NCBI GenBank assembly: GCA_963820825.1
Contig: CAWGBN010000002.1
Span: 347,949 to 411,948, forward strand
Length of the DNA stretch: 64,000 nucleotides
DNA from: Vulcanimicrobiota bacterium
GTDB lineage: Bacteria; Vulcanimicrobiota; Vulcanimicrobiia; Vulcanimicrobiales; Vulcanimicrobiaceae
Direction: 5' to 3'
Position numbers and translations under genes: made by a program
The notes under the pieces: generated by a model
What the model was told of the DNA's origin: nothing
Databases searched by the model: none
The model's input: only the letters and a program-made list of their open reading frames with translations
Shown here: positions 792 through 23,857 of the stretch, one piece after another
Numbering within the stretch: position 1 is the first letter of the stretch
Layout: every line of letters starts with the position of its first letter

Positions 792-1772
792 GTGCGATTT
801 CATCTGCTAGCCAGCCTGGTTATCGCCGCAGCATTTGCCGGATGCTCGAGCGCGCAACTACAACGCGGAAACCCGGCGCTGCCGAGTTCGCCGTCAAAAA
901 GCGTGCCGGCCGCCATCGGGCCGACGCCCGCGCCCATAGCGACGGCAAGTTGGGAGGACAGCATCTTTGTGGTCGACACCGGTGTCCCCGCCGTCAAGCT
1001 CTTTGCGCGCGGAACGTGGGCAGCCAATGGATCGTTCACCAATGGTGTGGCCAGTCCGTACGGCATCTGGAGTGATCAGAAATATCTCTACGTACCGAAC
1101 AGTATCAACAATGGCGCGAACGTAGAGGAGTATCGCCCCGACGATACGACTCCAATTTTTACCTATACGAACGGCCTCTCGGGCAACGCGATTAATGTTT
1201 CGACTCAGGACCTTGGCGGGGTTCACTACGTGTTCGTCGTCGTTGGCAGTACCGGCTTCGGTAACGGCTACGTTCGGCAGTTTCGTCGTGACACGAATAC
1301 GGTCATAGCGACGTGCACGCCTAACGGCCAGGGGCAGTTTGGAGTTGCTGGCGTTGCGGTCGACCCCAACGGCAACGTATTTGTTTCGTACTACGGCTCC
1401 GACAGCTCTACGCACATTGTCGAGTACGTTGGGGGCCTGGGCGGATGCGCTCAAACTCCGCTGATCACGCTACCGACAGAGGGAGCAGATATGGTTCTAG
1501 ATCATGCCGGTAGGCTGGTCCTTTGCGACGGTGTAAGCACCTGCGACATCATCAATCCGCCGTATACGAGCATATCAGGGACGCTCGGCTCCGGCTTCGA
1601 TGCTCCATTTTATGTTACGATAAATGCAACTAACCAACTCGCCTACGTGACCGACGGCTTAGGCGTTCACGTCCTCAGCTATCCCAGCGGCGCGCCGCTA
1701 CATACAATCGGTGCTTCTGCTGGCCTACATAATCCCGTCGGCGTCGTAGATTGGTTCAACTACGGTTTTTGA
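792..1772 (+). CDS. Lipoprotein, probable beta-propeller
   Basis: GGAG upstream, lipobox FAGC, NHL/SMP-30-like blades (GVAVDPNGNVFV). Confidence 0.8.
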   Translation: MRFHLLASLVIAAAFAGCSSAQLQRGNPALPSSPSKSVPAAIGPTPAPIATASWEDSIFVVDTGVPAVKLFARGTWAANGSFTNGVASPYGIWSDQKYLYVPNSINNGANVEEYRPDDTTPIFTYTNGLSGNAINVSTQDLGGVHYVFVVVGSTGFGNGYVRQFRRDTNTVIATCTPNGQGQFGVAGVAVDPNGNVFVSYYGSDSSTHIVEYVGGLGGCAQTPLITLPTEGADMVLDHAGRLVLCDGVSTCDIINPPYTSISGTLGSGFDAPFYVTINATNQLAYVTDGLGVHVLSYPSGAPLHTIGASAGLHNPVGVVDWFNYGF

Positions 1773-2134
1773 TCCGCCGCGGCCGTTTGCGTTGGCCAAT
1801 CGAACTCGGGGCAGGCAACAATGCTGCTCCAAATGCTCTGCCGCGGCAACACCGGCGCGCGCGAACCAAACCCGGAAGTGAGCGACGTGGAAGCGCCGCG
1901 CGACCAGAAGTGTTTCAACGTGCGCGCCCGTAGCCTCAAACTGTATAGAGCAGGGACTCCTAAAGCCTTAGAGCGTAGCCGTGCGTAGTCGCCGACGGTG
2001 CAAAAGCCCGTAAAGTACCCGCTTTTTCGGACGCCACCGGCAGCGCTGACGCCTTAGGGGCCTTAGGGCAACCAACCAGTCGCGTCGAACATCTTAGGGC
2101 GCTGATCCGTTCCGGGAGCTAGGAGGCACGGCCC

Positions 2135-2419
2135 ATGAGAAGGTTCGCACTCAATCGCTTCGCTCTAACCATGATCGTCGCGGGTGCATTCCTCGCGAGC
2201 TGCGACGGATCGCAACCGCAGATCGGCGCACCTGGCGCGACGAACCTGCCCATTGTCAATCGTGAGCGAAAGCGTTCCCGAACGTTGAGCTATTCGGGAA
2301 GCCCACAAAGCTTCAACGTGCCGTTCGCGCGCTGGTACCCGTATCTCCACCTATTTCCGGCGGCGTCAGTGCTGCCGGCGCTCGCCGCTGCCAGAGGCGA
2401 AGTCTTTATTATTTCTTGA
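2135..2419 (+). pseudogene. Truncated lipoprotein remnant (SQPQIGAPGA leader)
   Basis: AGGAGG RBS, lipobox LASC, leader DGSQPQIGAPGA like those of 55868-57133 and 57174-58160, then only a short body (LSYSGSPQSFNVP...). Confidence 0.5.
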
Positions 2420-2497
2420 CTATTGTGAGGTAGCTTTAGCTGTTAAGCAAACAGGCGCCATTTAGGCCCCGACGCTAGCTTCTATCGGGAGTGGCTC

Positions 2498-3523
2498 ATG
2501 CGATTTCATCGGACACTTCTGACCGCGACGATCGGGGCCATGCTGATCGCTGCGTGCACGAACGCGCAGTCTGAGATAGGTAGCTCGACGTTGCCTCGCT
2601 CGCCCGTACGTGTCGGGCCGGACGCGCCCGGGCCAACGCCGGCACCGCTGGCAACAGCGAGCTGGGAGCAGAGCCTCTTCATTAACGACGTCGTGACCGT
2701 GAACAACGGTGTGTGCAGCACCTCTTGTCCGACCAAGCTCTTCAAGAACGGTACCTGGACTGCTAACGGATCTTTCAACACCAGCGGATACCCCATGGGC
2801 CTCTGGAGCGATCAGAAATATTTGTACGTCCCCAACTTCGTTAACGCGACCACCGCAAGTGTAAACGAGTATCGCCCCAACGATCCTTCACCGATCTTCT
2901 CCTATTCGAACGGTTTGACATTCGTCACATCTGTGTCGACCCAGCTGCTGGGGAACGTACATTACGTGTTCGTTACGGGAGGATACAACACGAACTACGA
3001 GGCGAACTTCGTTCAGCAGTACCAGCGGGACACAAACACGATTATTGCCACGTGCTACCCCCATGGCAACGTAAATCTCATGGGCGTCGCCGTCGCTCCT
3101 AACGGAAACGTATTCGTCGACTACAACGACAGTCTCGACGTCGGGCACCTCGTCGAGTACGTCGGGGGCCTGGCCGGATGTAACGCAACGCCGTTGCCGA
3201 TGACCTTCCTGGGACATGTGACCGGGATAGCGCTCGACAACGCCGGAAGGCTCTTGATTTGCAACACTCACGGTGCGGCGGCCATCGACGTCATCGACCC
3301 GCCGTATACCAGCATATCCGGAACGCTTGGCTCGGGCTTCATGTTCCCGGATTCCATCTCGATCAATGCAAACAATAACCTTGCCTTCGTTGCCGATGGG
3401 CTCCTTGAGCAAGTCAGAGTGCTCCAATACCCAAGCGGCGCACTCGTTCAGACGATTGGTACCGCCAATGGGTTGAACGGGCCGCGCGGTGGCGCCGTGG
3501 AGTGGGTCAACTACGGCTTTTAG
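2498..3523 (+). CDS. Lipoprotein, beta-propeller, paralogue of 792-1772
   Basis: Lipobox IAAC. Shares GPTPAP.ATASWE, G.WSDQKYLYVPN, PPYTSISGTLGSGF and terminal W.NYGF with 792-1772. Confidence 0.8.
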   Translation: MRFHRTLLTATIGAMLIAACTNAQSEIGSSTLPRSPVRVGPDAPGPTPAPLATASWEQSLFINDVVTVNNGVCSTSCPTKLFKNGTWTANGSFNTSGYPMGLWSDQKYLYVPNFVNATTASVNEYRPNDPSPIFSYSNGLTFVTSVSTQLLGNVHYVFVTGGYNTNYEANFVQQYQRDTNTIIATCYPHGNVNLMGVAVAPNGNVFVDYNDSLDVGHLVEYVGGLAGCNATPLPMTFLGHVTGIALDNAGRLLICNTHGAAAIDVIDPPYTSISGTLGSGFMFPDSISINANNNLAFVADGLLEQVRVLQYPSGALVQTIGTANGLNGPRGGAVEWVNYGF

Positions 3524-3730
3524 TCGGTCTACGGCTTAACCAGCTCGAACGAAATCGTCGTGCCTGTAGAGAGCGCCGGCAACAGCGGCAGCGGCGTATA
3601 CGGCGACGTGCCGGCGCCGATGCCGATCGGCGAATGCTTCTGTTCCATCGGATTCGATCTAATAGCGCTCTGGCTGGACCGGCCGAGTTCCAATCTTGGC
3701 TGACTTAGGCTGCACATGGCTGCACCCAAG

Positions 3731-3764
3731 ACAAAAGGCCCGCTTCGTAAACGGGCCTTTGTTT
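3731..3764. terminator. Intrinsic terminator downstream of tRNA-Asn, possibly bidirectional
   Basis: ACAAAAGGCCCG-CTTCGTAAA-CGGGCCTTTGTTT hairpin with A/T tracts on both sides. Confidence 0.8.
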
Positions 3765-3766
3765 AA

Positions 3767-3842
3767 TGGCTCCGGATGCTGGACTCGAACCAGCGACCCG
3801 CTGATTAACAGTCAGCTGCTCTACCAACTGAGCTAATCCGGA
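3767..3842 (-). tRNA. tRNA-Asn (GTT)
   Basis: Reverse complement is TCCGGATTAGCTCAGTTGGTAGAGCAGCTGACTGTTAATCAGCGGGTCGCTGGTTCGAGTCCAGCATCCGGAGCCA: 76 nt, anticodon GTT, encoded CCA. Confidence 0.97.
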
Positions 3843-3902
3843 ACGTGCCGGGTGGTCGAAATGACCGGCGGACCGGGTTCCACAGGTCCGGCGGAGCCCC
3901 TT

Positions 3903-4391
3903 CTAGCGGCCGAAGTGGCGCCCTGCCAACGAGTTATCGACCATCATGGCCACGGGGACGCCGAAAAAGAGCGTATGCGCCACGAGGATGTTAATCAGGT
4001 GCGGCGTCGACAACGGGACGCGGACGGCGTGGCCGAGCGGTACGACGCCATAGATCATCACGACCATGACAACGATGCCATAGCAAAGGCCCATGATGGC
4101 CGGATAGCGGCGCACGAGCGGCAACGCCTCATATAACATCGTAAAGATGATTGCCCAGACCAACGAGACGACGAAGTCGGCCCCGAGACCCCGCAGCGCC
4201 ATGCCCCAGCCGCCGCGGAAGGCAGCGACCCCGTAGAAGTTCGAGGCGTCCCATTGCAAGACTTGCAGGAAGGATTGTATGAGCCGAACGTGCTCCACAA
4301 GGCAACGCTCGACCGCGAGATAAACGGTAATCGCGATCAATCCGGCAATGGCCGCGGCGATGGATGCACTGAGGAATCGAGAGGTCGTCAT
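3903..4391 (-). CDS. Hypothetical membrane protein (about 4 TM)
   Basis: Four hydrophobic segments, C-terminal AHTLFFG. Confidence 0.7.
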   Translation of the reverse strand: MTTSRFLSASIAAAIAGLIAITVYLAVERCLVEHVRLIQSFLQVLQWDASNFYGVAAFRGGWGMALRGLGADFVVSLVWAIIFTMLYEALPLVRRYPAIMGLCYGIVVMVVMIYGVVPLGHAVRVPLSTPHLINILVAHTLFFGVPVAMMVDNSLAGRHFGR

Positions 4392-12806: not shown

Positions 12807-13588
12807 GCGATACCCCTTAGAAAGATGCGCTTAATCTCGTTGGCCCTACCGGAGGTGGGGTCAATGGCGACGACGGCGCCGCAGAACTGCTTCGGACCGG
12901 TCTTCTGGACGCTAAAGCGTTCCGAAATACCGGTCAGAAACCGATCCAGCACCGCACCGGCCTCCATGCCGATGATGCCCTCGCTGGGGCCCGTCATTCC
13001 TAGATCACTGATGTACGCCGTCCCGCCCGGAAGTATCTGCTCGTCGGAGGTCTGAACGTGGGTATGCGTCCCGAAAATGCAGGAGACCCGGCCGTCGAGG
13101 TACCGCCCGAGGGCGACCTTCTCCGAGGTCGCCTCGGCGTGGACGTCGACCAGAACGACCGGTGTACGGGCGCGAAGCTCCGAGACGAGCGAGTCCGCAC
13201 ACCGGAACGGGTCGTCTACCGGCGGCATGAAGGTCCGTCCCATCACGTTGAGGACGCCGACGGTCACGCCGTTGACGGTAAAGGTCGCGGCGCCGCGCCC
13301 GGGCACCGCCGGGGGGTAGTTCGCCGGACGGATGACGCGACCGCTGCTCTCGAGATATTCGCCGAAGTCGCGCTTATCGAAGATGTGATTGCCGCCGGTG
13401 ATAAAGTCGACACCGGTCGCAAATATCTCTTCGGCGGTCTGCGCGGTCAAACCAAAACCGCCCGCGGCATTTTCGCCGTTGGCGATGCAGGCGTGGATCT
13501 TGTGCTGTTCGCGAAGCAACGAGACGCAACGCTTGAGCACCTCCCGTCCCGGGGACCCCACGACGTCCCCGATGACCAGAAGGTTCAG
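12803..13588 (-). CDS. ymdB: YmdB-family metallophosphoesterase
   Basis: LVIGDVVGSPGR, NGENAAGG, GNH, HAEATSEK, GTHTHVQT, DLGMTG. Start approximate. Confidence 0.9.
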   Translation of the reverse strand: MNLLVIGDVVGSPGREVLKRCVSLLREQHKIHACIANGENAAGGFGLTAQTAEEIFATGVDFITGGNHIFDKRDFGEYLESSGRVIRPANYPPAVPGRGAATFTVNGVTVGVLNVMGRTFMPPVDDPFRCADSLVSELRARTPVVLVDVHAEATSEKVALGRYLDGRVSCIFGTHTHVQTSDEQILPGGTAYISDLGMTGPSEGIIGMEAGAVLDRFLTGISERFSVQKTGPKQFCGAVVAIDPTSGRANEIKRIFLRGIA

Positions 13589-13596
13589 GGGGCTAT

Positions 13597-14148
13597 CTAA
13601 CGGCGAGCCGAGGCCTTCGCTTTCTTTTGAGATTTGAGAAAGTAAACGAGGACGCGCTTCTCTTCTCTAAATCCCACCAAACTCTTCGACTGCGTCGGAT
13701 CGCGCAACGCCTCGACGGCATAGAGCGCGGCTTCATCCTCGGCAGCCGGATCGGCATCGAGCTGATCGTCGGGGTGCGGATTGCGAACCAGCGCCTCGCC
13801 GCAGCGATCGCTGAAGAGTCCCACCTGCAGCTCGAGCTCTTCCTTTGAGAAGGTCTCGAGATCGCGGGTCACGTGCACGAAGGTCAGCGTTCGATCCCCC
13901 TCGCACTCCACGCGCAACACGGCCGGCTCTTCCTTGCCGAACGCGAGAAAGCTGCGGACGTGCTCCTCAACGCCTTCGGCGAGTGCGGCCTGCGCCGACT
14001 TATCGAGACGCTGGCGCACGGCGAACGTCAATCGAAGCGTCCGGTCCGTCGGACCGGAGCGAATCGAGGCCAGTTCCGGAAAACGCACCAAGAGTGCGCA
14101 GACCAGACTGACGGTATCGGCGTTTTCGACCGGTGCTCGCGTGCTCAT
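13597..14148 (-). CDS. Hypothetical protein (183 aa)
   Basis: ATG at 14148 (MSTRAPVENADTVSLVCALLVRFPEL...), GC-biased codons, directly upstream of ymdB. Confidence 0.7.
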   Translation of the reverse strand: MSTRAPVENADTVSLVCALLVRFPELASIRSGPTDRTLRLTFAVRQRLDKSAQAALAEGVEEHVRSFLAFGKEEPAVLRVECEGDRTLTFVHVTRDLETFSKEELELQVGLFSDRCGEALVRNPHPDDQLDADPAAEDEAALYAVEALRDPTQSKSLVGFREEKRVLVYFLKSQKKAKASARR

Positions 14149-14262
14149 GATTCTCGGATCTTCTTTCCGCTTCCAATCCCCCGAGGGCGACGTGCGCCAA
14201 GGGGGAGGGTCGTACGACGCGGTGCCAAGGTCTCCCCTTGCCCCCGCCTGAAAAAGACCGGG

Positions 14263-14817
14263 GTGACCCCGCGGAAGGTTCCGGCCACCCTGATCCTCGG
14301 CTTGCTTGCCTCGTTGGCGGCCCACGCGGCGCTCTTCGGTCGCGGCCATGCCATGGGAGGCGGCTTCCACGCGGTGCTCGTTCAGCTGGCCCTCACCGGG
14401 GCGCTCTGCCTGTTGGCTTTCTTCGGCGCGCTCGCTTGGAACGGCTCGCAGGGTGCAGCGGACGGGAGCATCGTGGCGGCCCGGCTGCGGGCGCGCCTTC
14501 CGGGCCTTGGCACGCTCTTCGCCGGCACGCTGGCCTGGTATGCGGCGGCGGAGGCGCTCGAACCGCATCACGCTTCCGTCTCGCTGGTCGTCACGGGGGT
14601 TGCGGTCGCGGGCATTGCTTGGCTCGTCTTGCAGCTCGCCCGCGCGATCGTCACCATCGTCGCCGGCGCGGTTATCGCCGTATGCCGCGCCGCCTTCTCG
14701 CCGCGAGCGACCTCCCGGCACCGCCGTCCGCGCCAACACCTTATCGCGCGCCGCGCGCCGATCGCGCGCCGTCGCTTCGCCCGTCCTCCTCCGGTCTTTG
14801 CGTTGATCCGCGCCTAG
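14263..14817 (+). CDS. His-containing membrane protein with near-terminal RPPP; putative regulatory leader of the downstream TonB-dependent receptor
   Basis: GTG at 14263. AHAALFGRGHAMGGGFH and LEPHH motifs, about 4 hydrophobic helices, ends ARRRFARPPPVFALIRA 39 nt before the receptor ATG. Confidence 0.7.
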   Translation: MTPRKVPATLILGLLASLAAHAALFGRGHAMGGGFHAVLVQLALTGALCLLAFFGALAWNGSQGAADGSIVAARLRARLPGLGTLFAGTLAWYAAAEALEPHHASVSLVVTGVAVAGIAWLVLQLARAIVTIVAGAVIAVCRAAFSPRATSRHRRPRQHLIARRAPIARRRFARPPPVFALIRA

Positions 14818-14856
14818 CCGCGCACCCAACGCACTCTTTCATTAACCGGAGGGACC

Positions 14857-17286
14857 ATGACTCGCATTTCTGCGGCGCTCGTCGCCGTTCTCATCATGTT
14901 TTCGTACGCCCGACCGGCCGTCGCAGCCGTGAGCGGGCTCGTTCGGGGAACCGTAACCATCGACGGTACGCCGGCCGCCGGAGCGGCCGTAACATTGGAG
15001 GGCGAGGGCTCGAAATTCGCAACCAAAGCGGACTCGAAGGGAGAGTACGTCTTCTCCAACGTGCCGTTCGGCAGATATCGCCTCACCGCAAACATCCCGA
15101 ACGTTCCGCCGCTGCAGGTGGACGTCACCGTCACGAGCGGCGTGGTGGCGACCGTCGATCTGCCGCTCTCCAAGTTACGGCAAATCGCGCAAACCACCGT
15201 GACCGCGCACGCCGGCATAACGAGCTATCCACCCTCGGTCCATCTAATCGACCGCACCCAAATTCAAACGTCGCCCGCTCAAAATAGCCTCGATCGAACG
15301 CTCGAAACGCTGCCGGGCGTCATACCCTTCTCCTACAACGAGCCGGTGATTAACGGATTCCACGGCGTGACCTACAACATCGATGGCGCTCCGCTGCCGC
15401 TGGCAACCACCTCGAACTTCGCCGAAATCATCGATCCCAAGATCATCGACTCACTCGAACTCTACACCGGCGCGATTCCGGCCGAGTACGGTGGCGACCG
15501 GATGGGCGGCGTGGTGAACATCATCAGCAGCCGCCCGACAGACTTCGCCCCAGGCGTATACGGCATCGTCGAAGGGGGAATCGGCAATCAATCGCAGGGC
15601 GTGGGGCAAGTCGAAGCCGCCGCGCGCTTCGGTCAGAGCGAGGCTTTTCTGGATGCCAATACCCAGAGCACCGCGCGTGGCCTGGACGCGCCGACGTTCG
15701 ATGCCATCCACGATAACTCGTCGCAGAGCGACCAGTTCTTCCGCTTCATAACACAACTGACGCCGCGCAGCTCGCTGGCGTTCGACTACTCCAACCAACT
15801 CGCGCAGTTTCAAATACCGATCAACACCGACCCGAACAACCCGTACGACCCGATCTATACCCCGGCCGGAACCGACGACGTCCAGCGCGAGTACGATCGG
15901 TTTTCAAACCTCAACTACACGCTGACCTCCAAAGACGGCAACGGCGTGCTGCAGGTCATCCCCTGGTGGCGCTCAACGCGGATCAACTACGACGGTGACC
16001 TTTTTAACGACGTGCTCGGAGTTACCCCAAACTTCAGCGCCGACGCAATCTGCTTTATGTGCGGCTCGCCGCAAGACGGCTCGGGCTCGGGCTCCGGCAG
16101 CGGCCAGCTGCATAACGTCGGCCTGCTCTCGAACACCGACGCAAGCTATATCGGCTTGCGCGCCTCCGACTTCCGCGCGACGAAGAACCACGCGTGGAAG
16201 ATCGGCTTTGACGTTGACCGCGAATTCCTGGTCGCAAGCCAGGCCTTCGCCTGTTACTATCAACAAGGCTGCGGCGCGACGTACGGCACGCACGATCAGC
16301 CGTATTACCTTACCGCGCCCCCGCAGCAGGGGCAGGCGGGATCGCAGGTCGGCATTTACGGCCAAGATAGCTGGCAACTTTCAAAATACGTCCTCTTCAA
16401 CTACGGCCTTCGCTACGACCACTCGACCGGATACACGAGCGGCAATATGTTTGAACCGCGTCTCGGTCTCAATCTCTGGGACGGCGGCAAAAATACCTAT
16501 CACGTCTTCTACGGCCGGTTCTACGCGGCGCCACTGCTCGAGGACGTGCGACAGGATTGCGTGCTCTTGCAAGGATGCACGGGCGAGCCGGTCTACAACC
16601 TGCTGCCCGAGCAAGACGCCTACGCCGAAATGGGCTGGCAGTACGCGTTCAACCCCGCCTTTACCGGATCGATCAATCTCTTCCGCAAAACGTCGGTTAA
16701 CGTCCTCGACACCACGGAGCTGCTCAATACCCCGCTCTTTGCGGTTTTCAACAACGCGATCGGCATCGACAACGGTGCGGAACTCCGGCTGCAGCAGCGC
16801 CTTCCCAACAACGATCTCTGGTGGTTCACGATGACGTATTCCGGATCGTACGCCGCCTGCGTCTCCGGATCGACGTTTCTCTTTCCACCGAATACCAATG
16901 AACCCGGCGTTTCGTGCGTCGCTCAGCTAGCGCCCGAAGATCACGACGAGACCGTCGTCTCGAGCGCGGCATACACGTGGCGCTTCGGCAAAGGCGGAAA
17001 CTGGTTCACGACCCTGCAGGGTAACTACGGCAGCGGCTTCCCGGTCGCGTTCGAGAGTGCGAATGCGAACCTGAGTGGGCGCCTTCCGGCGCATACGACC
17101 TTCGATCTCGCGGCCGGGCACAACCTCGTCCTCGGCCGTCCCGGCGAAGACCGGGGCCTGGGCGTTCAGCTGATCCTCAACAACATACTGAACCACCAGT
17201 ACGTCATCAAGGTCGCCAACGGGTTCAACACCACGCAGATCTCTAACGGCACGAACTTCCTACTGCGGCTCTCGGCCCCGTTCTAG
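14857..17286 (+). CDS. TonB-dependent receptor
   Basis: Signal peptide, carboxypeptidase-regulatory-like N-domain, plug (YNIDG, PAEYG..MGGVVNI), YGLRYD, NILNHQY, terminal Phe. Confidence 0.9.
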   Translation: MTRISAALVAVLIMFSYARPAVAAVSGLVRGTVTIDGTPAAGAAVTLEGEGSKFATKADSKGEYVFSNVPFGRYRLTANIPNVPPLQVDVTVTSGVVATVDLPLSKLRQIAQTTVTAHAGITSYPPSVHLIDRTQIQTSPAQNSLDRTLETLPGVIPFSYNEPVINGFHGVTYNIDGAPLPLATTSNFAEIIDPKIIDSLELYTGAIPAEYGGDRMGGVVNIISSRPTDFAPGVYGIVEGGIGNQSQGVGQVEAAARFGQSEAFLDANTQSTARGLDAPTFDAIHDNSSQSDQFFRFITQLTPRSSLAFDYSNQLAQFQIPINTDPNNPYDPIYTPAGTDDVQREYDRFSNLNYTLTSKDGNGVLQVIPWWRSTRINYDGDLFNDVLGVTPNFSADAICFMCGSPQDGSGSGSGSGQLHNVGLLSNTDASYIGLRASDFRATKNHAWKIGFDVDREFLVASQAFACYYQQGCGATYGTHDQPYYLTAPPQQGQAGSQVGIYGQDSWQLSKYVLFNYGLRYDHSTGYTSGNMFEPRLGLNLWDGGKNTYHVFYGRFYAAPLLEDVRQDCVLLQGCTGEPVYNLLPEQDAYAEMGWQYAFNPAFTGSINLFRKTSVNVLDTTELLNTPLFAVFNNAIGIDNGAELRLQQRLPNNDLWWFTMTYSGSYAACVSGSTFLFPPNTNEPGVSCVAQLAPEDHDETVVSSAAYTWRFGKGGNWFTTLQGNYGSGFPVAFESANANLSGRLPAHTTFDLAAGHNLVLGRPGEDRGLGVQLILNNILNHQYVIKVANGFNTTQISNGTNFLLRLSAPF

Positions 17287-17306
17287 CGAGCCACGCCGCA
17301 CCTAAA

Positions 17307-19733
17307 CTAGGGCCGGAATCGCACGCCCATGCTGAGCTCGCGACCCGGCCCAAAGTGATTGCCTTGGGCGTTGATCAGCGTAACGTAGTATCGATCGTTG
17401 AGCAGGTTTTGGACGTCGAGCGTCAAGGCGGCCTTGGGCCACAGCGCGATCCCTTCTTCGACGTCAAAGGTTGTGTGCGGCGTCTGTTTGCAGTATCCAG
17501 GCGTACCGGGCGGACAGAAATCCGAAGAGAGGCCGCTCCCGTATTCGGCGTCGGCCGAGAACCAGCCGCCGCGCCGGTCGTTGAGCAAGATCCCGCCGGT
17601 AACTGTATACCGCTGCTCGTGGTCAGCCGGCGTAAATCCCGTATCCTGTCCGAAGCATGGAGCGAGCAGCTGCGTTTCGCATCCCGCATTGAGCGAGACG
17701 ACGTGAGCGAATGAAACGTACGCGCGGCCGTTGCGGGTTAGCGGCTGGGTATAAGTGACGGCTTCTTGCGACAACCGCCCAAGGACGTAGTTGATGTCTT
17801 GATGCAGCAGCGTCGCGCCGACTTGCGTGTCGTCGATGAGGTCGTTCGCGTTCTTCTGCCAAATGCGAAAGCCGAGATCGCCGGAGCCGATCGGGACGTG
17901 CCCGCCGAACTCGAGCTGCGTGTCGCGTTCCGGCTTGAGATCGAACTGCGCGAGCGTACGCTGTAACGGCAGGTTGAGCAGATGCGCCGTGTACGGGCTC
18001 ACGTTTTCGAATGAAAACGGCTCGAAGAACCGGCCGGCGTACGCGTAGAGGCTTGCCCTTCGGCCAAAAAGACGCGTTAGCTTGATCCGAGGGCTGAAGG
18101 CCCCGAAGCCTTGTCCGAAGTTAGGCGACTTGATGGTGAAGAAATCGTAGCGGATCCCATAATCGGCTTGCCAGCGATCACCCATGCGCCAGCTGTCTTG
18201 AAGGTACGTTTGGTAGGTGTTCCCGATATTTGGGGAATCGTCGACGACCGTCGCCGGCGCGAGGGGCGTGTTCGGGCTGAGAATAGGGGCGAGATAGTTA
18301 TTGGGCTGTAACGAGATCGCGTAATACTTCAAGATGCGGCTGAGATCGTATGACACTCCGGCTGCCACGTTATGCTGCCCGAAGACTTGAGTATAGTCCG
18401 CCTGCATGATGTAGTTGAGCTCGGTGCGCGTGTCGGCCAGCGAAACGCCGCACATCGTCGGGAACGCGCTCGGATTTGCGGGAGCCAGCGTGAACGCGTT
18501 GGCGCAATCCGTGGAGCTGCCGCTGTTGCCGAATGGCGCCGGCGTACGATTCAGCGATTCGCCGTAGGTCCAATCGTTGACCGGATCGCCGTAATCTTGA
18601 ATCCTCCCCGCGCTATACGCCGGGCCGTAGGTTAGCGCACCCATGCTTCCGATGGCGTGGTGAAACTGTACGCCGAGAAACGTGTCTGCCTGCGTTTCGT
18701 TGTCGTCGGTATCGCCCGGTTCCCCGTAGGCAGTGTCGTTGGGAATCTGAAAGGTGCTGTGGCTATTGATAAACGTGATGTTGGTAAAGTTGTTTGCGCC
18801 CGCCGGTAGGGTAAAGCGAGCGAACTGACCCAGGGAGCTCGTATCGTTGTGAGGCGAGTTCCAATCGGGAGGGTCGAGTCCGCGCGTGCTCGTCAATCCG
18901 CTGAACGCTACGTCGAAGCCGCCTCCGCCTTCCAGCGGTGCGTGATAGCCGAACGTGTACTGCGCGTTCGAGTACGATCCAAAGCTGGCGTAACCGTCGA
19001 CTCCTGGCGGCCCGGTCCCCGCCCTCGTCGACAAATTGAAGATTGCCCCGAATCGTAATCCATACTGCGCGGGGTACGCACCCTCGATGAGATCGACGAA
19101 GGAGAGGTCGTTGATGTTGATCTCACTGCCGATGTCTCGGTTCAGCTCCTGCGGCAGCTGCACGCCGTCGACCGTGTAGTTGATGACACCGTGGTCGCCG
19201 TTGATATGGACGACGCCGTTCGCGCCTTGAACGGCTCCGGGCATCTGCAGCTGCATTTGCGTGAAGTTGTTGTCGAAGGGAAGCCGCGTTAGGTCGGTAC
19301 CGTTCAACACGACGTCGCTGCCGCTCCCATGGATCGCGAGCGATTGCGTTCGGCTAACGACCGCGTGGGCGATCTCCGTGAGTTTCGCAAGCGGGATGAC
19401 GATCTCGGCGCCGCCGCCGGCAAGGTCGACCCGGACGAGTCCGAGCAGGTCTCCCGTTTTCGCCTCGACGTCGTACGTGCCCGGCGCGAGCGGCGGAAAC
19501 GAGAAGCGTCCGGCGGCATCGGTCGTCGCCCTTACGGTTAGATTGTTTCCCGAGGCCGTGACCGAGACGTTGGGTGCGGGCCTTCCCTCGTTCGTCACCC
19601 TGCCCCGTATGAATGCGCTCGCATTTACCGCATATGCCGGTGATGCGCAGAGGAAAATTAGGAGAGCCGCGATCGATGCGGCGAGCGGCGCTCCGCTCGT
19701 CGCGCGCACGCAGGCGCGAAGCCATGACACCAT
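17307..19733 (-). CDS. TonB-dependent receptor
   Basis: AGGAG RBS, N-terminal domain, plug (YTVDG, YPAQYGLRFGAIFNL), YGIRYD, LKPERD, NLLNDRY. Confidence 0.9.
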   Translation of the reverse strand: MVSWLRACVRATSGAPLAASIAALLIFLCASPAYAVNASAFIRGRVTNEGRPAPNVSVTASGNNLTVRATTDAAGRFSFPPLAPGTYDVEAKTGDLLGLVRVDLAGGGAEIVIPLAKLTEIAHAVVSRTQSLAIHGSGSDVVLNGTDLTRLPFDNNFTQMQLQMPGAVQGANGVVHINGDHGVINYTVDGVQLPQELNRDIGSEININDLSFVDLIEGAYPAQYGLRFGAIFNLSTRAGTGPPGVDGYASFGSYSNAQYTFGYHAPLEGGGGFDVAFSGLTSTRGLDPPDWNSPHNDTSSLGQFARFTLPAGANNFTNITFINSHSTFQIPNDTAYGEPGDTDDNETQADTFLGVQFHHAIGSMGALTYGPAYSAGRIQDYGDPVNDWTYGESLNRTPAPFGNSGSSTDCANAFTLAPANPSAFPTMCGVSLADTRTELNYIMQADYTQVFGQHNVAAGVSYDLSRILKYYAISLQPNNYLAPILSPNTPLAPATVVDDSPNIGNTYQTYLQDSWRMGDRWQADYGIRYDFFTIKSPNFGQGFGAFSPRIKLTRLFGRRASLYAYAGRFFEPFSFENVSPYTAHLLNLPLQRTLAQFDLKPERDTQLEFGGHVPIGSGDLGFRIWQKNANDLIDDTQVGATLLHQDINYVLGRLSQEAVTYTQPLTRNGRAYVSFAHVVSLNAGCETQLLAPCFGQDTGFTPADHEQRYTVTGGILLNDRRGGWFSADAEYGSGLSSDFCPPGTPGYCKQTPHTTFDVEEGIALWPKAALTLDVQNLLNDRYYVTLINAQGNHFGPGRELSMGVRFRP

Positions 19734-19790
19734 AAGATGCTCCTAGCACAAGAGAGAGTTGAGTACGGCCGGCGAGGCCGCGCTAAGTGG

Positions 19791-19955
19791 CTAGGAGCGA
19801 GGCGGAGGACGGTTCCCCCGCGTTGATGCGAAGGTTGCATAGGTCGGAGTGACGTCGGCGACGGCGAACCGTGGGATGGAATGCGCCGCGTGGTCGCACA
19901 CCGACCCCGAGAAAACCAATGCCGGGCAGACCGGGCAGCCTCTCCAATGCTGCAT
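19791..19955 (-). CDS. 54-aa CxxC/RPPP leader peptide (CruR/DUF2946-like), not in the ORF track
   Basis: Hand translation: MQHWRGCPVCPALVFSGSVCDHAAHSIPRFAVADVTPTYATFASTRGNRPPPRS*. Stop lies 57 nt before the receptor ATG. Confidence 0.75.
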   Translation of the reverse strand: MQHWRGCPVCPALVFSGSVCDHAAHSIPRFAVADVTPTYATFASTRGNRPPPRS

Positions 19956-19957
19956 AC

Positions 19958-19974
19958 TTGCAACTTATTCGCAA
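19958..19974. promoter_or_regulatory. Imperfect AT-rich palindrome, possible Fur-family operator
   Basis: TTGCAACTTATTCGCAA (minus strand TTGCGAATAAGTTGCAA), between a -10-like TATATT and the leader ATG. Confidence 0.5.
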
Positions 19975-20029
19975 ATATAGCCGGGAGGACCTTTGGCTAC
20001 CGGGAGTAGATTAAGATTTTTTGGAGCAG

Positions 20030-21061
20030 ATGCACGACCTTAGCCGCGGAAGAGTGATCGTCACGGGGGGCGCCGGCCTTATTGGCAGCGCCGTTCTTTG
20101 GGCCTTGAACCGGCGCGGGATCGACGACGTTCTCGTAATCGACCGCCTGGACGCTTCCGAAAAGTGGAAGCATCTGGTCCCGCTTCGCTTCATCGACTAT
20201 ATGGATGCCGATGAGTTCGAGCGCGCCGCCGAATCCGGGCGCACCTGCGGCGACGTACGGACCGTCATTCATCTCGGCGCCTGCTCATCGACGACCGAGA
20301 CCGACGTCGACTATCTCTTGAAGAACAACTACGAGTATACGAAGCGTATCGCGCGCTGGGCGATGGACGAGGAGGCGCGCTTCGTCTACGCGTCGTCGGC
20401 GGCGACGTACGGCGGGCTAGAAGCCGAGCTCTCCGACGAAGCCAACCTGCATTCGCTGCGGCCGCTCAATGCCTACGCCTATTCGAAGCACCTCTTCGAT
20501 CTCTACGCGGCGCGAACCGGACTCGACCAGCAGATCTGCGGACTCAAATACTTCAACGTCTTCGGTCCGAACGAGGACCATAAAGGCGAAATGCGCAGCG
20601 TCGTTCAGAAGGCCTTCGAGCAGATTCGCGAGAGCGGCTCGGTCCGGCTCTTCAAGAGCCACCGTCCGGAGTATCGTGACGGCGAACAGCAGCGCGATTT
20701 CATCTACGTCAAGGATGCGGTCGAGATGACCCTGCATCTCGCGGAGTCAGGCGCGACCGGGCTCTACAACATCGGCACGGGGACGGCGCACACCTGGCTG
20801 CAGCTCGTCCGGCCGATCTTCCACGCCCTCGAGCTTCCGGAACGAATCGAATTCGTGGAGATGCCGGTTCACCTCCGCAACAAGTACCAATATCACACCT
20901 GCGCGCGGATGGAGCGGTTCTATGCCGGCGGCTACAATCGTCCGATGACGCCGCTCGCCGACGCCGTGACCGATTACGTAACCAACTATTTGGTGCCGCA
21001 ACGGCCGCTCGAGCTCTCCGACGCTCCGGTGGCGGCCCCACTCCGACTAATGTCACCCTGA
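20030..21061 (+). CDS. hldD: ADP-L-glycero-D-manno-heptose 6-epimerase
   Basis: IVTGGAGLIGS, HLGACSSTTE, YASSAATYG, PLNAYAYSK, KYFNVFGPNEDHKGEMRS, RDFIYVKD. Confidence 0.92.
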   Translation: MHDLSRGRVIVTGGAGLIGSAVLWALNRRGIDDVLVIDRLDASEKWKHLVPLRFIDYMDADEFERAAESGRTCGDVRTVIHLGACSSTTETDVDYLLKNNYEYTKRIARWAMDEEARFVYASSAATYGGLEAELSDEANLHSLRPLNAYAYSKHLFDLYAARTGLDQQICGLKYFNVFGPNEDHKGEMRSVVQKAFEQIRESGSVRLFKSHRPEYRDGEQQRDFIYVKDAVEMTLHLAESGATGLYNIGTGTAHTWLQLVRPIFHALELPERIEFVEMPVHLRNKYQYHTCARMERFYAGGYNRPMTPLADAVTDYVTNYLVPQRPLELSDAPVAAPLRLMSP

Positions 21062-21817: not shown

Positions 21818-22390
21818 TTAGCGCAGAACCTTATCGAGTGCGGCGGCGAGTTCCTGATACGAGAGCTCGCCGCTGTTCAGATAGGCGACCTTCTTGTCGC
21901 GCCCGACGATCGCAATCGTCGGGAAACCTCCCTGGAGATAGAGGTTGGCGACGTTGAGCAGCGGATCGTACGCAACCGGATACTCTGCGTGAAATCGCCG
22001 CTGCCAATCGAGCACGTCGAGTTGCGACGACGCCGAGGTTCCGTCCATTGCCGTCTGGCTCCCGGATACCGCGACGAACCTCACGCGGTTACGGTACGCC
22101 TGGTAGAGGCGATCGATGACGGTGGTCTCGCGCTGGCAGTGCGGACACCACGTCGCGAAGACCTCGAGAAATACGGGCTCGTTCGTCTTGCTCAAATCGA
22201 AGAGTCCGCCGGTCGTCGAGACGACGAAGTTCGGCGCCGGTTGGCCCACCTGTGCCTTGCCCACGATTGGCGATTGCGACGCGTTCTCGACGCTTCGGTG
22301 CCCGGGGCCGAAGAGATAGTAGAGCACCGCGGCGACGAGAATCAGCACGAGTGCGGCGAGGGTCGTGACGGCGAGTTGACGACGGGTCAT
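21818..22390 (-). CDS. TlpA-like thiol-disulfide oxidoreductase
   Basis: N-terminal TM, FATWCPHCQRE, GGFPT. ATG at 22390 overlaps the upstream stop. Confidence 0.85.
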   Translation of the reverse strand: MTRRQLAVTTLAALVLILVAAVLYYLFGPGHRSVENASQSPIVGKAQVGQPAPNFVVSTTGGLFDLSKTNEPVFLEVFATWCPHCQRETTVIDRLYQAYRNRVRFVAVSGSQTAMDGTSASSQLDVLDWQRRFHAEYPVAYDPLLNVANLYLQGGFPTIAIVGRDKKVAYLNSGELSYQELAAALDKVLR

Positions 22391-22824
22391 GCGTTGCGAA
22401 GCTTTCGATCGACGGCAAGCGCGCCCGGCGCCGCCCACGCGACAAAGATGGACGCACATGCGAGTGCAAGGTCGAACCCGACGTGCGGCCAATCCGCGAC
22501 CGCCGCGTCATTCGGTCCGAAACATCCGCAGTTTGCGGCAATGTGGCGGAGCACCGCCGACGCTACGGCGCCGGCATAACCGAGGAACTGCAGCGCGGCG
22601 ATCGCCGCGGCGACGCGCGTGAAGAGCCCGGCGATCAGGTACGCGCCAAGCGCGGTTTCCAGGAAGGGGAGCGCCAAGGCGAGCGGCCCGACGATCTGCG
22701 GCGGAAGCAGCCGAAAGCCGGCGATGTTGGCCGCAAGCTCGGCCGGATGGCCAACCTTAAGCGCGCCTGCAACGACAAGCAGACCGCCCAAAAGAACGCG
22801 GATGATTAAGACCGCAGCCTCCAT
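22387..22824 (-). CDS. MauE/DoxX family membrane protein
   Basis: RVLLGGLLVVAGALK, LPFLE, NCGCFG. Confidence 0.85.
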   Translation of the reverse strand: MEAAVLIIRVLLGGLLVVAGALKVGHPAELAANIAGFRLLPPQIVGPLALALPFLETALGAYLIAGLFTRVAAAIAALQFLGYAGAVASAVLRHIAANCGCFGPNDAAVADWPHVGFDLALACASIFVAWAAPGALAVDRKLRNA

Positions 22825-22900
22825 TGCGGAGCAGTCCTTTGCGCCCCGGCTCCCTCAACCCCTGGTAGAATAATCGCATGCGCCGAATCTTGGCGTCCCC

Positions 22901-23857
22901 ATGATCGCGCTGCTCGCGTCCGCGCTCTTAGCGCTCGTCCCCGTCCACGGGCTTCTCATCGAGAACCTCGCGGATCGTACGGCGATCGTCCGCACCGATG
23001 CGGTGGTCGGGATGTTTGCGGCGCGCACGCGCCGCTACCGATTCGTACCGCCGGTAACGCTGCGTGCCGGTACGACGCTCGACGCGATGCTCGATCCGGC
23101 GGCGAATCCCCCGGAGCTGCGCGATGCCGTCGCGGCCGGTGCCTTCGCGCCGGGATTGCCCGACGCCGGGCGCGTCGTTCCCGTTGCGCTTGGCTCGAAG
23201 CTTCCCAGGGCGATGCTGGTCGATCAGCAGCAACGCCCGGTCGAGCTCGACCGCGCCTTCAGCGGCAAGACGCTCTTGCTCTCGTTCGTCTTCACCCGCT
23301 GTCCCGATCGCACGCTCTGCCCCGCAATCAGCGGAAAGTTCGCCTATCTGCAGCAGCGTTTGGATCCCAGGCGCTTCGCGCTCGCCGAGATCACGCTCGA
23401 TCCGCAGTACGACTCACCCGCCGTCTTGCGCGCGTACGGTGCCGCCTACGGCGCGCGTCCCGAGTGCTGGCGCCTGCTCACGAGCACGGGCTCGACGATC
23501 GTCCGCCTGCTCGATGCATTCGGGGTCAGTTCGATGCGCGTGAGCGAGAGCAACTTTCTTCACAGCGACCGGCTCTTTATCGTCGCACCCACCGGACGGA
23601 TCGCCGACATCGTCGAGACCGGCGAGTGGGATCCGGGCGGCGTGCTCGCGCAGGCGCGAGCGGTCTCCGGTCTTGCGAACAACCCCTTCGAGCGCTTCAA
23701 GCTTGCGCTCATCGCCAATGCGATCGCGCTCTGCGGCGGGAGTCAGTTCGCCGGGATCGCGCTGCTCGAGCTCTCGCTCTTCACACTGATCGTGCTGGCA
23801 TCGGCGGCCGCGTTATGGACCGTCGCCCGCATCATCTGGCCGCGCGGGGCAGGATGA
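22901..23857 (+). CDS. SCO family copper chaperone with N- and C-terminal extensions
   Basis: FVFTRCPDRTLCP, ITLDPQYDSPAVLRAY, FLHS, C-terminal TM. Confidence 0.85.
   Translation: MIALLASALLALVPVHGLLIENLADRTAIVRTDAVVGMFAARTRRYRFVPPVTLRAGTTLDAMLDPAANPPELRDAVAAGAFAPGLPDAGRVVPVALGSKLPRAMLVDQQQRPVELDRAFSGKTLLLSFVFTRCPDRTLCPAISGKFAYLQQRLDPRRFALAEITLDPQYDSPAVLRAYGAAYGARPECWRLLTSTGSTIVRLLDAFGVSSMRVSESNFLHSDRLFIVAPTGRIADIVETGEWDPGGVLAQARAVSGLANNPFERFKLALIANAIALCGGSQFAGIALLELSLFTLIVLASAAALWTVARIIWPRGAG

Follow-up and report, generated by a model that had tools for sequence, protein, structure and literature searches.

Organization of the two leader-receptor units

We examined a 64,000-nucleotide stretch of DNA (hereafter, the window) from a Vulcanimicrobiota bacterium (assembly GCA_963820825.1, contig CAWGBN010000002.1, positions 347,949 to 411,948 of the forward strand) in which two TonB-dependent receptor genes, R1 and R2, are each preceded by a short open reading frame (ORF), L1 and L2 respectively, with the tetrapeptide RPPP at or near its end. 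Judged by sequence, these leaders are members of a conserved, unnamed RPPP family outside Pfam that appears to work like CruR of Bordetella pertussis and is not DUF2946. The features of the two units are as follows (window positions; the Shine-Dalgarno arms are from predicted folds).

14263-14817, plus strand: leader L1, 184 amino acids, GTG start, tail RRRFARPPP (from the ORF, conservation and an AlphaFold model)
14782-14793, plus strand: RPPP codons of L1, overlapped by the anti-Shine-Dalgarno (anti-SD) arm at 14785-14795
14845-14853, plus strand: Shine-Dalgarno (SD) arm of R1, predicted to pair with the RPPP codons of L1
14857-17286, plus strand: R1, TonB-dependent receptor, 809 amino acids (from the ORF, Pfam and NCBIfam)
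17287-17306, no strand: gap of 20 nt between the stops of the convergent R1 and R2
17307-19733, minus strand: R2, TonB-dependent receptor, 808 amino acids, paralogue of R1 (from the ORF, Pfam and pairwise comparison)
19747-19739, minus strand: SD arm of R2
19798-19790, minus strand: anti-SD arm of unit 2, made up of the final codons of L2 with its stop and lying immediately 3' of RPPP
19811-19800, minus strand: RPPP codons of L2
19955-19791, minus strand: L2, a soluble stub of 54 amino acids with an ATG start at 19955, which keeps CPVC and the GNRPPP tail (from the ORF)
19958-19974, no strand: 7-1-7 palindrome directly before the L2 ATG, a putative Fur-family (probably Zur) operator

The ORFs bore out the initial annotation of convergent 809- and 808-residue receptors with 20 nt between their stops, and no terminator-like site was called in the gap at 17287-17306. 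The receptors had also been described as distant paralogues, and they are (25% identity, E 1e-38); the motifs listed as common to them are present with small slips, in that R2 has TPHTTFD and ING.HGV has one residue more after it. In Pfam searches both proteins exceeded the cut-off for the barrel domain (PF00593) and had an N-terminal carboxypeptidase-regulatory-like domain (PF13620), and the plug domain (PF07715) was over the cut-off in R1 and weak in R2. The plug and beta-barrel, together with TonB and ExbB elsewhere in the genome, identify both as TonB-dependent receptors. Every NCBIfam score for the characterised subfamilies (OprC, BtuB, siderophore and heme receptors, PqqU) was far under its cut-off, TIGR01778 (OprC type) was absent from the matches of either receptor at E 0.01, and a sequence search of the PDB returned weak matches to plug regions only.

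Near-invariant His residues were found in R1 (H169, H549, H696, and H746) and in R2 (H176, H181, H644, H705, H753, and H793, plus three Cys pairs). Three of these positions are common to the two receptors (H169/H181, H696/H705, and H746/H753), are 97-100% conserved (33 and 89 sequences), and may bind metal.

A conserved family of leaders

The L1 ORF ends RRRFARPPPVFALIRA, with its stop 39 nt upstream of R1. Among 87 sequences its conserved residues were H21, H29, H36, E97, E100, and H103, along with a basic tail, and its AlphaFold model (pLDDT 82.8) had helices at residues 3-25, 34-64, 82-99, and 108-141 and a short helix at 68-76. The positive-inside rule would place the ligands on periplasmic loops, and we regard L1 as a candidate copper-sensing arrest peptide. 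Neither L1 nor L2 matched a Pfam or NCBIfam family over cut-off, and Foldseek found no match for the L1 model in the PDB at E 0.001. The Atlas placed L1 in unnamed clusters whose commonest phylum was Vulcanimicrobiota; the nearest named Atlas family, DUF6412 (0.78-0.81), is a weak lead. An L1 match was present in all 44 of the 44 genus genomes sampled, and RPPP was found in 86/87 L1 and 95/96 L2-family sequences.

In six genus genomes with convergent units, and in many relatives from the class, L2 is 192-208 amino acids long. These full-length L2 proteins have H22, E26, H43, Q98, E109, a CxxC and an NRPPP end, and their model (pLDDT 84.0) is like that of L1, with four long helices, one or two further short helices and a tail lacking structure. 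Profile comparison matched L1 to L2 with a probability of 96%; the membrane part alone, after removal of the tail, gave E 1.7e-4 and a probability of 50%, with controls (one reversed, five shuffled) at 0.06 or above. H21/H22, H36/H43, and E100/E109 are aligned in the two, and the last ligand lies 70-71 residues from the motif Arg in L1 and 72-73 in L2 (10th to 90th percentile). A hidden Markov model search returned 181 clusters at 50% identity. Among 142 newly listed distant L2-family representatives, 115 end in RPPP, three in RAPP, and 20 have any CxxC, a motif found in none of the 87 L1-family sequences.

By these comparisons L1 and full-length L2 are one paralogous family with a common His/Glu core, and the CxxC is an add-on in L2. 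The proposal that the locus holds two independent kinds of sensor, one based on Cys and the other on His, gives way to a single family with aligned His/Glu ligands. Inspection of 49 L2-family loci, with one from an unpublished genome set aside, showed an R2-type receptor downstream of the leader in 48, and CxxC is missing from 15 of these 48 leaders.

Two other leaders were seen in addition to these. An L2-family RPPP leader (L207; G096 C1:711916-712380) precedes an efflux-looking gene of the resistance-nodulation-division type, CusA/CzcA-like by eye at its N-terminus. In a third leader-receptor unit of this genome (L263:~800-3945; G000 C6), an 861-residue TonB receptor lies 42 nt downstream of a membrane leader that bears His residues, ends RLAKRGPPQTRFA and has its stop near 525519; the orthologue is in G096 (L262).

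Predicted folding of the junctions

Both junctions were predicted to fold over the SD of the receptor, and the SD had an unpaired probability of 0.20 or less in all the junctions folded (23/23 for L1 and 14/14 for L2). With the footprint of a stalled ribosome removed, the start site became cheaper to open by 5.7 kcal/mol for R1 and 8.1 kcal/mol for R2, drops reached by 4.4% and 0.5%, respectively, of 203 roughly length-matched background genes. The drop was at least 3 kcal/mol in 10/23 L1 and 12/14 L2 junctions. Over 17 genus L1 junctions the L1-stem structure was paired at 88.7%, vs 24-50% with slid partners, and in the L2 stem two of the nine pairs showed two-sided changes (eight sequences). 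A stem that hides the SD within reach of a stalled ribosome is a predicted fold with weak covariation in these junctions.

Both RPPP motifs had been placed at an anti-SD stem and both do lie there, although the codons of the L1 motif themselves serve as anti-SD and the anti-SD of L2 lies just 3' of its motif. Both leaders were confirmed to encode RPPP beginning CGT CCT CC, but this sharing is not conserved among relatives of L2, in which it occurred in only 2/14 junctions. The rare codon CCT accounts for 4.4% of Pro codons in the genome's long ORFs and encodes the first Pro of the motif in 17/23 L1 junctions, a retention that points to selection acting at the RNA level.

A loose scan of the genome for short RPPP-ending ORFs before SD-led long ORFs gave three hits, two of which were L1 and L2. 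Since control tetrapeptides gave 0-7 hits in the same scan, it proves little by itself. Chance is unlikely because of conservation: L1 in 44/44 genomes, a near-invariant RPPP, and the retained CCT. The earlier argument, that two independent occurrences made chance unlikely, was right to disfavor chance but not as to independence, as R1/R2 and L1/L2 are paralogous.

No Rfam element or riboswitch reached the gathering score within 13500-21000, and matches in a scan for sigma-70 promoters and terminators were not above chance. SD-like sequence was missing before both leader starts (window 14263 and 19955), and leaderless transcripts are possible. EF-P and Rho are also encoded in the genome.

The shortened L2

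L2 ends RGNRPPPRS, with its stop 57 nt upstream of R2. A start at 19979 was rejected because of an in-frame TAA at 19967-19965, and the start was assigned to the ATG at 19955. The CPVC lies 38 residues ahead of the motif Arg, and no hydrophobic or membrane helix was found in the 54 residues. The start of the short L2 has the same position relative to the palindrome as that of full-length L2, the tail is also retained, and QHWRGCPVC aligns with the family's QLGEGCPLC at the DNA level (1/300 shuffles as good). On this sequence evidence the L2 of this genome is a deletion stub of a four-helix leader of ~195 amino acids. The sister genome G059 has a 52-residue in-frame stub whose four Cys occupy other positions; over 27 codons, the tails of the two stubs have 11 silent and seven amino-acid differences. 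Besides G059, no further short L2 forms were found in 91 genus genomes, metagenome contigs and a protein collection searched with a single-sequence query.

Where the 5' end of R2 could be read (73 genus genomes), R2 was preceded by a full leader in six, a stub in two, and the palindrome only in seven; the remaining 58 were leaderless and had either a divergently oriented Fur-family gene or the promoter box of that gene, so that 65/73 R2 genes had no leader. In a FastTree phylogeny of 95 receptors the two stub genomes were sisters (support 100) within a clade (90) that also held three palindrome-only and five fur-type genomes. The series from full leader to stub to none suggests leader loss in progress. 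This L2, first taken as a typical sensor, proved to be a form found in 2/73 genomes, most R2 orthologues being leaderless and behind Fur-family operators. While the hairpin persists, the stub would still have to be translated, and we lean slightly toward it being an opener or a remnant rather than a sensor.

Operator and zinc context of unit 2

Fur-family boxes are often 7-1-7 repeats. When the genome was scored with a matrix made from the palindrome in other genomes, the highest-scoring site was C6:701335 (27.2), followed by the site before L2 (22.0), with the next at 16.4. Downstream of the highest-scoring site are a Fur-family gene (C6:701366-701755) and the genes for a binding protein of the ZnuA family, an ATPase and an ABC-3 permease.

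L126:4366-7257 (G000 C6:701366-704257): Fur-family gene with an ABC operon of ZnuA/AztC type, downstream of the top-scoring operator site

The box was found before the fur-ZnuA-type operon in 24/30 genus loci, in three before R2, and in none of 27 genus loci before L1. A box scoring at least 15 preceded 24 of the 29 closest L2 loci, of which eight were in the training set. The operator is common to R2, a Fur-family gene and a metal ABC operon of cluster A-I, as in a Zur regulon. The binding protein of the ABC operon apparently has Glu where the first His ligand is usual.

Nineteen plasmid homologues of R2 were found at 24-27% identity, and four were examined. The distant homologue in Paraburkholderia is beside zigA and a Fur-family gene, and that in Bradyrhizobium follows a DUF2946 gene. 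We consider it very probable that unit 2 is controlled mainly at its operator by a Fur-family protein, and zinc is the probable metal of that operator.

In most genus genomes (L032-L046 and L067-L120) R2 was observed back-to-back with a second Fur-family gene, and the R2 promoter there has a distinct, highly conserved, GATAAT-N8-ATTATC-like box. This second regulator was not found with that query in G000 (genome 85% complete).

Copper context of L1-type leaders

Among 36 further loci fetched, 16 had an L1-type leader before a non-receptor gene, and for 15 of these 16 copies CopC, CopD, YcnI (DUF1775), a multicopper oxidase or SCO was encoded within two genes; the 16 loci are related and not independent. 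Periplasmic copper is somewhat favored here as the metal of unit 1. The initial annotation had the two leaders tune separate receptors, and a difference in metal between the units is supported by the copper context of L1 on one side and the Zur-like operator and zinc context of R2 on the other. As arrest-peptide-like upstream ORFs (uORFs), the leaders also fit the idea that SD-hiding stems control metal-related TonB receptors.

Two arrangements were seen repeatedly behind L1-type leaders: a CopC-CopD-signal peptidase S26 fusion (~675 amino acids) followed by YcnI (DUF1775) in L244-L249 and L252, and an unannotated secreted protein of ~303 amino acids with an HVVCGDR-like start and no Pfam match, followed by CopC, in L258, L260, and L276.

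Gene layout across relatives

Tallied by hand, the 73 genomes had the tandem layout L1-R1-(fur)-R2 in 35, unlinked units in 14, convergent units in 13, an undetermined layout in nine and others in two. Three genomes marked unpublished (G036, G125, and G135) are counted in raw tallies alone, and none of the conclusions depends on them. In 9/29 further loci the units were back-to-back around one common palindrome. Linkage is common and orientation is free. The mirror-image architecture that first drew attention to the locus is a minority layout by synteny (13/73 convergent, vs 35 tandem and 14 unlinked), and a functional mirror-image layout was rejected, as tandem, unlinked, convergent and divergent forms were all found. 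The layout is itself without importance.

20021-21061, plus strand: NAD-dependent epimerase gene, at one end of the inverted segment and outside the switch

The product of this neighboring gene we take to be HldD-like. The gene often follows R2 in tandem loci and stands back-to-back with the R2 promoter in convergent ones, placements that would fit inversion of the segment lying between R1 and this gene. At window 21818-23857, 2-4 kb past L2, are thioredoxin-like, MauE/DoxX and SCO1/SenC genes. In one relative (L087, from G088) a truncated L1 lies upstream of the fur-R2 pair and R1 is gone from the locus.

Discussion

Among described systems, CruR (Bp2923, DUF2946/PF11162)-BfrG of B. pertussis (PMC9426467; arrest in PMC12992588) resembles these units in having a uORF with a C-terminal Arg-x-Pro-Pro before a TonB receptor. 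The constant spacing of metal ligands from the motif, the CxxC of L2, and the distant R2 homologue after a DUF2946 gene are further likenesses to CruR as it is described there. The leaders differ from it in ending in RPPP rather than RAPP, in their four membrane helices, and in a spacing of 70-73 residues (38 in the stub) vs 45. They have a short gap and an anti-SD stem in place of the long gap and Rho termination of CruR, and their CxxC is tied to a Zur-like context. No match to PF11162 was found in L1, L2, 96 full-length L2 sequences or the genome, with a Caulobacter control positive. The DUF2946 profile, the RAPP motif and the CxxC spacing of CruR are thus missing from these leaders, and the position before a TonB receptor or copper genes is shared. 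Taken more broadly as small membrane proteins with Arg-x-Pro-Pro near the C-terminus, encoded on the same strand as the gene that follows, L1 and full-length L2 are RAPP-like uORFs; the stub has no membrane helix.

CutF-CutO of Rhodobacter capsulatus (PMC9973294) likewise has an exported leader, a proline-rich end and an SD-hiding stem-loop, and some L1 copies precede multicopper oxidases. CutF, as reported, has a cleaved signal peptide and a CxxxC, and copper prolongs its stall; L1, by contrast, is polytopic, lacks CxxC and mostly precedes a receptor. From their description, the four-helix RAPP/RGPP leaders of Streptomyces lividans, for example SLIV_18480 (PMC12992588), are also alike in their four helices, conserved His, C-terminal arrest motif and metal-related downstream gene. 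For full-length L2 the Atlas gave a cluster from Actinomycetota at 0.95. The same survey ties transmembrane leaders to YcnI genes, and L1 copies likewise head YcnI. For R2, the Zur-repressed zinc receptors ZnuK and ZnuL of Caulobacter crescentus (PMC4176598) offer a parallel, as TonB receptors behind a Fur-family operator common to an ABC operon; their operator is GTTA-N5-TAAC, the portion of that report available to us describes no leader, and R2 was compared by arrangement only. In the literature as we could consult it, metal-sensing arrest peptides so far number two copper cases, CruR and CutF, and the survey of such leaders covers RAPP and RGPP (PMC12992588); RPPP and the names of the phylum are absent from its main text. 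We found no publication on the RPPP leader family, although the few members ending in RAPP could be among those tabulated in the supplements of PMC9426467 and PMC12992588. By analogy with CruR one would expect the opposite of what the gene contexts indicate here, with the Cys leader linked to zinc and the His leader to copper.

RPPP was the strongest stalling XPPP among those reported as tested in the Escherichia coli NlpD context without EF-P (PMC4176338), and a stalled ribosome is reported to open an SD stem in SecM-type leaders (PMC10987492) and has been proposed to do so in CutF (PMC9973294). Unit 1 is therefore read as translational attenuation, which by this analogy we hold to be highly probable. 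The anatomy, conservation, paralogy, predicted pairing, operator distribution and gene context, all observed or computed, are best explained as a whole by a duplicated RPPP leader-receptor module with attenuation of the SecM/CutF type, its R2 copy mainly zinc-repressed; we think this reading likelier to be right than wrong. Stalling, topology, metal identity, polarity and the role of the stub are what we infer within it. An ancestral module of a four-helix RPPP leader, an SD-hiding hairpin and a TonB receptor would have been duplicated early in Vulcanimicrobiota, and the copies would then have specialised. A ribosome on L1 would stall at RPPP and cover the anti-SD codons, leaving the R1 start free so that R1 is made. 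The tunnel of the ribosome accommodates 30-40 residues. Given the 70-71 residues that separate the Arg from the last ligand, the His/Glu site would have only just been completed on the periplasmic face when the ribosome stalls. Binding of metal, probably copper, would alter the pull on the chain and end the stall, upon which the hairpin would shut and R1 translation drop. Transcription of unit 2 would be repressed by a Fur-family protein, probably Zur, and the stub, having no helices, would probably act mostly as a constitutive stall that keeps the R2 start open, an intermediate toward the leaderless state. The convergent layout would be the product of the local inversion described above.

Several points weigh against this explanation. 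Stalling and the metal response are here predictions from sequence, and RPPP stalls are relieved by EF-P in the report cited above (PMC4176338), unlike those at RAPP and RGPP (PMC12992588). The L1 stem has one two-sided change, its covariation over the 17 genus junctions was not greater than in shuffles, and the drop in opening cost was less than 3 kcal/mol in 13/23 L1 junctions. In the full ensemble a stall raises the unpaired probability of the SD from ~0.01 to 0.25 (R1) and 0.23 (R2). A stall under shortage suits a receptor, but the L1 copies before oxidases allow that the polarity may be the opposite, as in CutF. The copper link comes from other L1 copies and not from R1, and the genome (85% complete) had no CopC or YcnI match. 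As to zinc, the box preceded only 2/19 more distant L2 copies, the binding protein of the operon scored 170 bits for AztC (zinc) vs 166 for MntC (manganese), both under cut-off, the best NCBIfam matches of the regulator were Fur/PerR and not Zur, and two of the four annotated receptor homologues gave no metal clue.

The 54-residue L2 might instead be a working cytoplasmic sensor that relieves the stall when zinc (or copper) is bound at the tunnel exit by CPVC, C20, H22, and H25, as a second check behind Zur. Its CPVC descends from the family's GEGCPxC at the DNA level (1/300 shuffles as high), yet the Cys positions of the two stubs cannot be aligned, and the N-terminus of the G059 stub is not significantly similar to the family motif (77/300 shuffles as high). 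That G059 also has an in-frame leader of 52 residues with four Cys, and that the 27-codon tail common to both has 11 silent vs seven amino-acid differences, would fit such a function; set against this are the presence of a stub in 2/73 genomes, the lack of further short forms in the searches above and the complete loss of the leader in three close relatives of the same clade. Regulation by CruR is reported to persist after loss of its export signal (PMC9426467), but the spacing of 38 residues in the stub is out of line with the 72-73 of the family and the 45 of CruR. We consider a working stub sensor unlikely. Similarly doubtful is a wider version of the idea, in which one family present throughout the lineage was retuned by duplication, one copy to sense periplasmic copper (His/Glu) and the other to sense zinc (His/Glu, with CxxC in some members), and the 54-residue CxxC-RPPP stub is still a working cytoplasmic sensor. 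If this were true, the family would provide a natural series (full membrane sensor, soluble stub, leaderless) in which the choice of metal and compartment by arrest peptides could be tested, and would include the first zinc-responsive arrest peptide within the literature searched.

Rho-dependent termination, with the hairpins secondary, is improbable as the control of these receptors. Rho is encoded, the 3' ends of the leaders are C-rich, and CruR, which also precedes a TonB receptor, is proposed to act in this way (PMC9426467), but the gaps of 39 and 57 nt are short vs 162 in cruR-bfrG and the SD-hiding stem is retained in both leader families, as in CutF and SecM-type leaders. We give as little weight to the leaders being SecM/MifM-like monitors of membrane insertion or the envelope, or sensors of Ni, Co, Mn or Fe, with the operator read by a Mn/Fe Fur-family protein. 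Membrane leaders with RAPP-like ends are described as monitoring Sec/YidC (PMC10987492), the nearest named Atlas family is the weak lead DUF6412, and the ABC-operon binding protein also scores for MntC; a pure insertion monitor would not be expected to have invariant His/Glu residues along one face or to lie among copper genes.

The duplicated leader-receptor module preferred here concerns an RPPP family that is common in a little-studied soil phylum and whose paralogues point to different metals. The second paralogue displays every stage from a full leader to pure repressor control. If the proposed mechanism is confirmed, the set of arrest motifs would extend to RPPP, a polytopic, periplasm-facing design would be added to the known sensors, and the family would supply matched natural variants for questions of metal specificity and polarity.

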